From IMG/VR virus record IMGVR_UViG_2574180160_000007: DNA of 34,744 nucleotides, one strand, 5' to 3'. Under the pieces are notes generated by a model, which worked only from the letters and a program-made list of their open reading frames with translations, made no database searches and was not told the DNA's origin. Every line of letters begins with the position of its first letter. The stretch's first letter is position 1. The position numbers were made by a program, and so were the translations under genes. The stretch comes from a virus. Its lineage: Duplodnaviria; Heunggongvirae; Uroviricota; Caudoviricetes. Below, piece after piece: positions 27,215 through 27,504 of the stretch.

Positions 27215-27239
27215 AGCCTCCTCCCGGGTCCAGAACGCA

Positions 27240-27470
27240 CTCAGCCGGGTATGGTTCAGCCCATTTTTCCCGGCGTCTCATGCCGCAAATGTTAACTGCT
27301 GCCTGGTTAACATTTGCTGAAAAAGCCTGTTAACATTTTTTCCGCACAACAAACTGAATAATAAAGATAAAAACCGCAAAAATGCCCGGGCAGCCAGTTA
27401 ACATGTTAACTGCCCTGAAACGGGAATTTTTTCTCTGCGTGAGAGGGGGCGCGGTGTCCAAAGCGATCGT
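27240..27470. promoter_or_regulatory. Putative cos region (cosB-like repeats plus GC-rich candidate cosN)
   Basis: Four to five copies of a GTTAAC(A/T)-containing motif in both orientations (AAATGTTAACTGCTGCC, TGGTTAACATTTGCTG, CTGTTAACATTTTTT, AGTTAACATGTTAACTGCC) and a GC-rich block GAGAGGGGGCGCGGTGTCC, between HNH and TerS as in HK97-type packaging modules. Confidence 0.4.
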
Positions 27471-27504
27471 TTTTTACGCCGGATGATACCCCCCCCGGGT
27501 TGGG

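Follow-up and report, generated by a model that had tools for sequence, protein, structure and literature searches.

A probable HNH-assisted cos site with candidate small-terminase-binding repeats in a lambdoid prophage

Introduction

Where is the DNA of this phage cut for packaging, and how might the packaging machinery tell it from other DNA? The question is raised by a 290-nt gap in the window, by which we mean the whole 34,744-nt stretch of viral DNA that was analysed. Along the minus strand the order is HNH endonuclease, the gap (27504..27215), small terminase subunit (TerS), large terminase subunit (TerL) and a prohead protease-capsid fusion. The HNH gene (27505..27870, minus strand; 121 aa; PF01844, E=3.7e-8; phrog_589, E=4e-44) lies directly upstream of the putative cos site described here. 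Beyond the gap are the genes, all on the minus strand, for TerS (26651..27214; 187 aa; PF03592, E=1.3e-8; phrog_641), an HK97-type TerL (24993..26654; 553 aa; PF03354, TerL_ATPase, and PF20441, TerL_nuclease), the protease-capsid fusion (22992..24929) and the portal (21416..22780). Upstream of HNH we find Rz, lysozyme, holin and a NanS-p-like esterase. These neighbours of HNH, TerS and TerL identify this part of the window as the late region of a lambdoid prophage.

The cos of phage lambda is composed of cosQ, cosN and cosB, with the elements R3, I1, R2 and R1, and is bound by gpNu1 and IHF. Between lambda and phage 21, specificity resides in a TerS N-terminal domain that is matched to cosB. 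SPP1 has several repeated boxes, to which the ring attaches through its helix-turn-helix domains. The cos of HK97, which like our gap lies between HNH and TerS genes (in HK97 gp74 is the HNH protein, gp1 TerS and gp2 TerL), has reportedly been defined by experiment (Juhala 2000; Kala 2014). HK97 TerS recognises a single 15-bp site, +15 to +29, within which lies an A/T tract; the T-tract is needed for binding, and the DNA threads the ring (PMC11331095). The HNH protein gp74 stimulates the cos cut (PMC9410871), and according to Kala 2014, as cited in PMC9410871 and PMC11331095, phages of the HK97 type depend on HNH proteins for cos cleavage. For most phages, DNA recognition by TerS is still debated (PMC11331095).

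A sequence-only reading of the window had proposed that the gap is an ORF-free spacer between HNH and TerS that houses a cos site, with GTTAAC-containing repeats for TerS. The identity of both flanking genes is borne out by their Pfam and PHROG matches, and the spacer is indeed overlapped only by mechanical ORFs of 42-58 aa, whose underlying sequence drifts in relatives. As a type, the element is an ordinary one, and its ends have already been mapped in a sister phage; the repeat code is previously undescribed. What our analysis adds is the full anatomy of the element and a comparative case for a switchable code between TerS and its sites.

Results

The Stx1 phage Lys8385Vzw was classified by PhageTerm as a cos phage with 3' cohesive ends, the 10-nt CGCCCCCCCT standing at the genome end (PMC7946995). 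Its record, MT225100, ends in ...ggacaccgccccccct and starts with ctcacgcagagaaaaaattccc, and this end/start junction equals the window's minus strand from 27459 to 27421. Over a longer read, the record ends in ...gatcgctccggacaccgccccccct and starts with ctcacgcagagaaaaaattcccgtttcagggcagttaacatgttaac, where the minus strand of the window runs ...gatcgctttggacaccgcgccccct ctcacgcagagaaaaaattcccgtttcagggcagttaacatgttaac. The overhang 10-mers, CGCGCCCCCT in the window and CGCCCCCCCT in Lys8385Vzw, differ by one substitution. The mapping is a single PhageTerm analysis and was made in the relative rather than in the window prophage, but the packaging proteins of the two are 95-97% identical (TerS 95%, TerL 97%, HNH 97%), and the transfer of the ends to the window is therefore safe. 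By homology, the predicted nick in the coding strand separates 27444 from 27443.

The cosN-like core (27421..27459, minus strand) reads GGACACCGCGCCCCCT/CTCACGCAGAGAAAAAATTCCCG, the slash marking the predicted coding-strand nick. The predicted 10-nt 3' cohesive end occupies 27444..27453 and reads CGCGCCCCCT on the minus and AGGGGGCGCG on the plus strand. A run of eight G residues (GGGGGGGG on the minus strand; 27489..27496), a conserved element on the left of cos, begins 53 nt ahead of the predicted cut, and an A6T2 tract (27425..27432, minus strand) spans +12 to +19 from the cut. The GC-rich block seen by the sequence-only reading is real: it corresponds to 27444-27459, to which the C8/G8 run at 27489-27496 can be added. 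Along the genes, the HNH stop is followed by this GC block, then by the repeats and finally by the TerS start. The cos of Lys8385Vzw is the same element, with nearly identical core, dyad, spacer and distal sites; the available text of PMC7946995 gives the 10-nt cohesive sequence and makes no mention of the repeats, the G-run or TerS recognition. A full-text literature search with the 10-mer and its variants returned, among the matches listed, unrelated papers only.

Comparison with the HK97 cos, which the earlier reading had suggested as a check, revealed the same layout of a G-run, a GC-rich 10-mer and an A/T tract. In HK97 a G9 run starts at -51, as against G8 at -53 in the window. The HK97 overhang, gac/cgccgccaaa/gtttg with the 10-mer CGCCGCCAAA, has its counterpart in CGCGCCCCCT; both are GC-rich, 10 nt long and preceded by GAC(AC). 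The T7 tract of HK97 at +24 to +30 and the A6T2 tract of the window at +12 to +19 both lie no more than 30 nt from the cut. The proteins are far less alike. TerL of the window matches HK97 gp2 at 23% identity over 489 aa (BLASTP, E=2e-11), whereas by BLASTP its TerS appears unrelated to gp1 (E=0.3) and its HNH protein has no detectable similarity to that of HK97. HK97 TerS lacks a helix-turn-helix domain, while TerS of the window has one of the SF6 type, together with five sites between +34 and +155. As TerS and HNH have no BLASTP homology to those of HK97, the single-site recognition model of that phage is not simply transferable.

We then compared related loci (designated by L numbers), fetched by means of a TerS alignment with one genome per species. 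They come from Atlantibacter, Kluyvera, Serratia, Kosakonia, Enterobacter, Citrobacter and Phytobacter as well as Rouxiella, Erwinia, Pantoea, Buttiauxella and Morganella, and a more diverged block is found in Pseudomonas, Janthinobacterium and Acinetobacter. TerS of the distant relatives is 30-49% identical to that of the window, and their cos core is almost invariant. The distances between G-run, core and A/T tract stay constant across relatives of more than 15 genera: in nearly all of them 6-9 consecutive G residues, beginning 51-53 nt ahead of the cut, are followed by GGACACCGCGCCCCCT/CTCACGCASAGAAAAAATTCCC, and the position of A6T2 is kept as an A- or T-tract in all. The homology to the PhageTerm-mapped ends of Lys8385Vzw and the HK97-like layout uphold the earlier proposal of a cos within an HNH-dependent packaging module. 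We conclude that 27285-27496 is very probably a cos site with its cut at the predicted position.

The repeats lie on the TerS side of this core. GTTAAC occurs ten times in the 34,744-nt window, and five of these copies, at 27291, 27306, 27329, 27397 and 27405, are in the gap, each with A or T as the next base, in agreement with the four to five copies of GTTAAC(A/T) that had been noted. The repeat unit is better written as the 8-mer ATGTTAAC, which has five copies window-wide, all inside 27289-27410. The expectation for the whole window is 1.05, none of 100 shuffles gave five, and we calculate a probability of about 1e-9 for five randomly placed sites to lie together within 122 nt. GTTAAC itself being palindromic, the orientation of each site was taken from its AT flank. 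On the minus strand the order is <, >, >, >, <, so that the orientation is not strictly alternating as had been thought; along the genes there is an overlapping divergent pair, then a lone site, then a convergent pair with a 9-nt gap.

The first pair forms the proximal dyad CAGTTAACATGTTAACTG (27395..27412), an 18-bp palindrome, and thus without strand, made of two overlapping copies of ATGTTAAC (27397-27404, minus; 27403-27410, plus) at offsets of +34 and +41 from the cut. It is followed by an AT-rich spacer in which T-tracts recur about every 10 nt (CATTTTTGCGGTTTTTATCTTTATTATTCAG...; 27337..27394, minus strand), whose presumed role is bending. The lone distal site c, ATGTTAAC at 27329..27336 (minus; +109), is found at the same position in L165, L167, L173, L177, L169 and L247. 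The distal dyad, GCAAATGTTAAC-N9-GTTAACATTTGC (27285..27317, either strand), is a perfect 12-bp inverted repeat with positions conserved across the classes defined below; it contains site b (27306-27313, minus; +132) and site a (27289-27296, plus; +148). No match to the IHF consensus WATCAANNNNTTR with at most one mismatch was found in 27215-27504, and the window-wide count of such matches equals chance. The close relatives, with 46 distinct upstream sequences, are too alike for the invariance of their motifs to be telling, nearly all other positions being invariant as well.

In the E. coli lineage of the window, 224-241 nt from the cut to the TerS start house the five sites. In most of the distant relatives, which are compact, this distance is only 36-45 nt, and a single dyad, GTAAACATGTTAAC, homologous to the proximal one, overlaps the TerS start codon and ribosome-binding site. 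The distal sites, missing from the compact relatives, are therefore not essential to the family. As read from the window's sequence, TerS has the ribosome-binding site GGGAGGAGG (27217-27225, minus strand) and a GTG start codon (27212-27214), and the start position is the same in relatives, with GTG or ATG. Conservation of the dyad in the compact relatives could partly stem from coding, as ATG TTA AC specifies Met-Leu-Thr. We had considered the conserved TTA codon of these relatives (ATG-TTA-AC) as proof of selection at the DNA level and rejected this on the evidence of L178: with ATGTTTAT as its repeats, this locus still has ATGTTAAC at the start codon, so that coding must explain that copy at least in part.

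The relatives fall into classes in which the motif of the repeats and the N-terminal sequence of TerS vary together. In class V (the window, L165, L173, L169), TerS reads ...KTARVKGSQL and the sites are ATGTTAAC. In class C (L167, L172, L177, the distant L178 with 48% identity, and L349), TerS reads ...EKSARCKGSQL, and every one of the 5-6 sites is ATGTTTAY/RTAAACAT. Class W (L170, L171, L174, L179) has KGWQL or KGCQL in TerS and direct repeats of AAAGTTACAC. The sites of V and C differ by one base, TGTTAAC versus TGTTTAC, and the residues that differ consistently by class are 32 (T/S) and 35 (V/C), with 38 (S/W/C) in addition for the third class. The positions are the same in both V and C (+34<, +41>, +109>, +132/133>, +148/149<); in L178 the sites are at +33, +40, +108 and +130, and the first site stands at +33/+34 in every motif class. 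Between proximal and distal sites, the spacer keeps its length from class to class while its sequence drifts. L173 (class V) is 79% identical to the window in HNH and 87% in TerL, whereas L167 (class C) is 79% identical in HNH and 96% in TerL. Among the loci compared, then, motif class follows TerS and not HNH or TerL identity, although the sites lie right beside the 5' end of TerS, so that linkage alone explains part of the association. A DUF3950 protein encoded beside HNH had also been considered as the binder of the repeats; this candidate was rejected, being absent from class-C L167 and L168 and from the called flanks of L178.

The association also held when one side was used to forecast the other. 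For P0031 and P0009 the site motifs were forecast from the protein before the DNA was inspected, and both forecasts were confirmed; P0008 and P0072 were picked on helix sequence alone, and their motifs came out as predicted. Conversely, L349 was fetched by its DNA motif alone, and its TerS helix proved to be of the predicted type. It was the one true hit among 94 matches in a metagenome scan for the class-C site pair, the other 93 being chance matches without the cos core. A scan of viral contigs for the class-C dyad adjoining the core gave no matches. The 74 viral contigs with a class-V helix (73 with KTARVKGSQL and one with KTARIKGSQL) each carry five copies of ATGTTAAC and none of the other motifs.

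An AlphaFold (AF2) model of TerS residues 1-56, with pLDDT of 92-95, contains helices at 4-14, 19-25, 33-41 and 44-56. The best Foldseek match of this N-terminal domain is the DNA-binding domain of SF6 TerS (4zc3; TM 0.84, rmsd 1.6 Å); 2cmp and 3zqq match as well, and a profile search against PDB sequences agrees. Because the canonical helix-turn-helix pattern A5-G9-hydrophobic15 fits, we infer from the model that helix 33-41 is the recognition helix, which would place residues 35 and 38 inside it and residue 32 at its N-cap.

Further comparative evidence comes from islands that carry the signal apart from a complete packaging module. L247 is an 11.7-kb island encoding an integrase, Ash, a D5-type primase, SSB, a lambda-E-like capsid protein and a gpD-like decoration protein. 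It terminates in the whole signal: G-run, core, the dyad at +34/+41 and sites near +109, +132 and +148. Neither TerS, TerL nor HNH genes were found in L247, nor any downstream gene; its spacer has diverged, while the core and all five sites hold their positions. This sequence speaks for a packaging signal that is complete in itself. At tRNA-Pro, an 8.5-kb island (L170, L171, L180) combines the same core with a TerS and AAAGTTACAC repeats of its own but lacks TerL and HNH, and in L170, L174 and L180 an own TerS stands beside the shared core.

Discussion

The fixed distances of the repeats from the cut, their change with the residues of the TerS helix and their travel with the core on an island devoid of TerS sustain the earlier suggestion that they are TerS-binding sites. 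In our judgement the ATGTTAAC repeats are probably cosB-like sites for TerS, as the comparison of sequences suggests, and we consider it likely that the explanation as a whole is correct, namely an HK97-type, HNH-assisted cos with TerS-bound repeats.

Other roles for the repeats, and for the gap, have to be weighed against this reading. With a genuine cos core, the ATGTTAAC copies might still be operators, serving TerS autoregulation or another repressor of the head genes. They lie just upstream of the TerS start, the dyad of the compact relatives overlaps the TerS ribosome-binding site and start codon, and the motif resembles promoter hexamers, with a plus-strand promoter-like match at 27307-27336 built of the repeats. 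That match points antisense, however, and lambdoid late operons are read through from pR', which likewise counts against operators. Moreover, the sites are fixed relative to the cut rather than to the TerS start, from which the last site is separated by 185-241 nt overall, and L247 keeps the five-site array at the same distances from the cut without TerS or a downstream gene. A signal maintained there without terminase genes argues against a purely regulatory role, and we hold operators to be improbable. It also appears unlikely that the repeats are bound by a different packaging partner, be it HNH, TerL, or IHF or Fis bending cos. Such a binder would accord with the AT-rich spacer, with the HNH requirement for cos cleavage in HK97-type phages, and with lambda, whose cosB needs IHF. 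Yet the motif class is independent of HNH and TerL identity, and, as read from the DNA, L173 (class V) and L167 (class C) have similar-looking HNH C-termini. Satellites that bring only TerS (L170, L174) have repeats of their own, a host factor cannot yield three motif classes within E. coli, and the gap is devoid of the IHF consensus at the mismatch limit given above.

The inverted repeats could instead act as structures, that is, as RNA hairpins or terminators or as DNA cruciforms, and not as protein sites. The perfect 12-bp stem with its 9-nt loop (27285-27317) and the 18-bp palindrome (27395-27412) invite this interpretation, and both stems stay paired through the change from class V to class C. 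But the unpaired site at +109 changes just like the paired ones, class W has direct repeats, and the RNA fold of the gap does not differ significantly from that of shuffled sequences (z = -1.5, 13/200). A terminator scan of the gap found none, and an Rfam scan of 26900-28200 gave no match at E<=1. We regard structures of this kind as a very unlikely explanation. Least credible of all is headful (pac) packaging, with the gap as an intergenic region in which the repeats arose by chance. It is true that the Terminase_2 family (SF6/SPP1-like) to which TerS belongs is best known from pac phages. However, the TerL is of the HK97 type and comes with a neighbouring HNH gene, chance falls far short of explaining the repeats, conservation of the core extends over many genera, and the near-identical Lys8385Vzw is a cos phage with 3' ends by PhageTerm (PMC7946995).

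For the preferred reading, a cos with TerS-bound repeats, we envisage the following course of events. The concatemer would be cut in the core GGACAC/CGCGCCCCCT/CTCACG by TerL and the HNH protein, leaving 10-nt 3' overhangs at 27444-27453, a polarity that we infer from the relative. The adjacency of the genes suggests that HNH would stimulate cleavage by TerL in this module. The new left end at 27443 would be packaged first, towards the terminase genes. The G8 run and the A6T2 tract would be part of a universal core; as they are kept whatever the TerS class, they are presumably needed by TerL or HNH or for the overall shape of the DNA. Through helix-turn-helix domains on its outer face, the TerS ring may bind the proximal dyad and the three distal sites, with the spacer of about 60 bp, rich in T-tracts, probably bending between them. 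About 120 bp would in this way be wrapped, placing the complex beside the core. The sites would identify the DNA as belonging to the phage and bring TerL and HNH into position on the core, and they might serve both the initial cut and the stop at the next cos. Since HK97 TerS reads a single site next to an A-tract (PMC11331095), the conserved A-tract rather than the repeats could also be the main contact of TerS here.

In its overall architecture the element recalls lambda cos, which is tripartite as well: an upstream element and a nicking site are followed, towards the terminase genes, by several TerS sites that differ in orientation and are separated by a bendable spacer. The traits shared with lambda cosB are the repeated motif on the terminase-gene side and, on comparative evidence, a specificity matched to the TerS domain. 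Unlike the window, lambda has a 12-nt 5' overhang, no HNH, a gpNu1 whose winged helix-turn-helix belongs to another family, and an IHF site between the R sites, and sequence similarity between the two cos elements is absent. The small terminase G1P of SF6 and SPP1 has the same fold of the DNA-binding domain as TerS of the window; these phages differ in that they package by the headful mechanism, lack an HNH partner and do not form defined cohesive ends.

More tentatively, and with somewhat less than even confidence, we propose that two functions may be separable in this very widespread family of modules: a universal cutting core of G-run, GGACACC with the GC-rich 10-mer and A-tract, which TerL and HNH would read and which says where to cut, and an exchangeable label, made of the TerS domain and its sites at fixed positions, that says whose DNA it is. 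The label might be retuned by one base per site through T32/V35 versus S32/C35, which could yield incompatibility groups and be exploited by satellites. If this is true, co-resident prophages would form packaging-incompatibility groups, and satellites would either copy the whole label of the helper, as in L247, or bring their own TerS and label, as in L170, L174 and L180. There are precedents for both strategies. L247, with a helper-type cos and no terminase genes, resembles the cos-carrying satellites SaPIbov5 (with phi12/phiSLT) and P4 (with P2), and L170, L174 and L180, in bringing their own TerS, resemble the TerS-encoding pac SaPIs. The E. coli islands, which are putative satellites, differ from these in belonging to the HNH/HK97-type cos family; the cf-PICI literature consulted does not describe a cos of the HNH/HK97 type like that of the window.

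Knowledge of the exact cos gives correct genome ends and makes packageable prophages distinguishable from non-packageable ones. It also allows the prediction of mobilisable satellites or cos-bearing plasmids and the design of cosmid-like delivery vectors for EHEC-type phages. The apparent switch of one base and two residues offers a simple model for how TerS of the SF6 type reads DNA. The element is common: 1277 of 5426 complete E. coli genomes contain the 290-nt segment, in up to seven copies each and never annotated. Of the 94 matching phage records, 92 have the gap at 95% identity or more; the records are mostly from Stx1a, Stx2a and Stx2c converting phages, for example BP-4795, 2851, 1717 and YYZ-2008.

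Satellite-like islands and the cos site

A complete copy of the window's type of cos was found on a satellite-like island (L247, whole locus 1-11730). Lying at the right end of the island (10680-10915), it comprises the G-run, the core and five copies of ATGTTAAC, these five at the positions they have in the window. The island encodes an integrase, Ash, a D5_N primase, SSB, a lambda-E-like capsid protein and a gpD-like decoration protein, and no TerS, TerL or HNH gene was present anywhere in the 1-11730 locus. Its packaging probably relies on prophages of class V (TerS helix KTARVKGSQL), such as that of the window.

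Another E. coli island, of about 8.5 kb, resides at tRNA-Pro between yejM and yejO (L170:1400-1520; L171; L180:2186-10444). It encodes an integrase, an Icd-like protein, a RepA helicase, a 307-aa capsid-like protein and its own TerS, which is 47% identical and carries a KGWQL helix; neither TerL nor HNH was found on the island in any of these three loci. The core of its cos is that of the window, but the repeats are two copies of AAAGTTACAC, at +33 and +45 from the predicted cut. The island looks like a satellite that redirects the TerL and HNH of a helper by means of its own TerS. A remnant resembling this island adjoins alpA in a further locus, L174.

Variation around the cut among relatives

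Further variants of the repeat arrangement are seen in Pantoea and Morganella. In Pantoea, whose TerS helix reads KTAKVKGSQL, three direct GT(T/A)AACCC repeats follow the core and precede the TerS start (L021:2930-3000). In Morganella, GTTAAC/GTTAAT repeats are clustered on the opposite side of the cut, upstream of the G-run (L025:2790-2900). In the compact relatives (L007-L026), the TerS start codon is only 36-45 nt past the cut and is contained in the dyad GTAAACATGTTAAC, at about position 3001 of each locus. Further GTAAACA copies occur at -73 and +222 of the TerS start. Because the +222 copy falls within the TerS linker, which is poorly conserved and shows VNT/VYT motifs at the protein level, candidate distal TerS sites may lie inside the terS gene of these relatives.

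Many relatives also share a conserved AT-rich element, approximately gaatgataNcaattatcatttg, located after the HNH stop and about 20-70 nt before the G-run (L010, L015, L016, L017, L018, L022, L178 and L032). HK97 has this element before its G-run (L176:620-680), whereas the window lacks it, the HNH stop there abutting the G-run. The element could be cosQ-like or a host-factor site.

Divergent from HNH lies the gene for a 66-aa DUF3950 (YlcI/YnfO-like) protein (window 27912-28112, plus strand), which resembles ribbon-helix-helix DNA binders in sequence. We rejected it as the reader of the cos repeats because it is missing from class-C loci (TerS helix KSARCKGSQL). The tRNA-Pro satellite, too, has a member of this family in its regulatory region (L180:4510-4689).

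Other features of the prophage

A NanS-p-like esterase (DUF1737 + SASA + DUF6645) and tRNA-Arg(tct) (window 30987-34427, minus strand) occupy the position that stx has in Stx phages. Since no stx-sized ORF was found between them within 30987-34427, the prophage is apparently related to Stx phages but non-toxigenic. Its head-gene order is unusual: directly after TerL comes a 645-aa protein in which an S78 prohead protease is fused to the major capsid protein, and the portal (21416-22780) is encoded after this fusion (window 21416-24929, minus strand).
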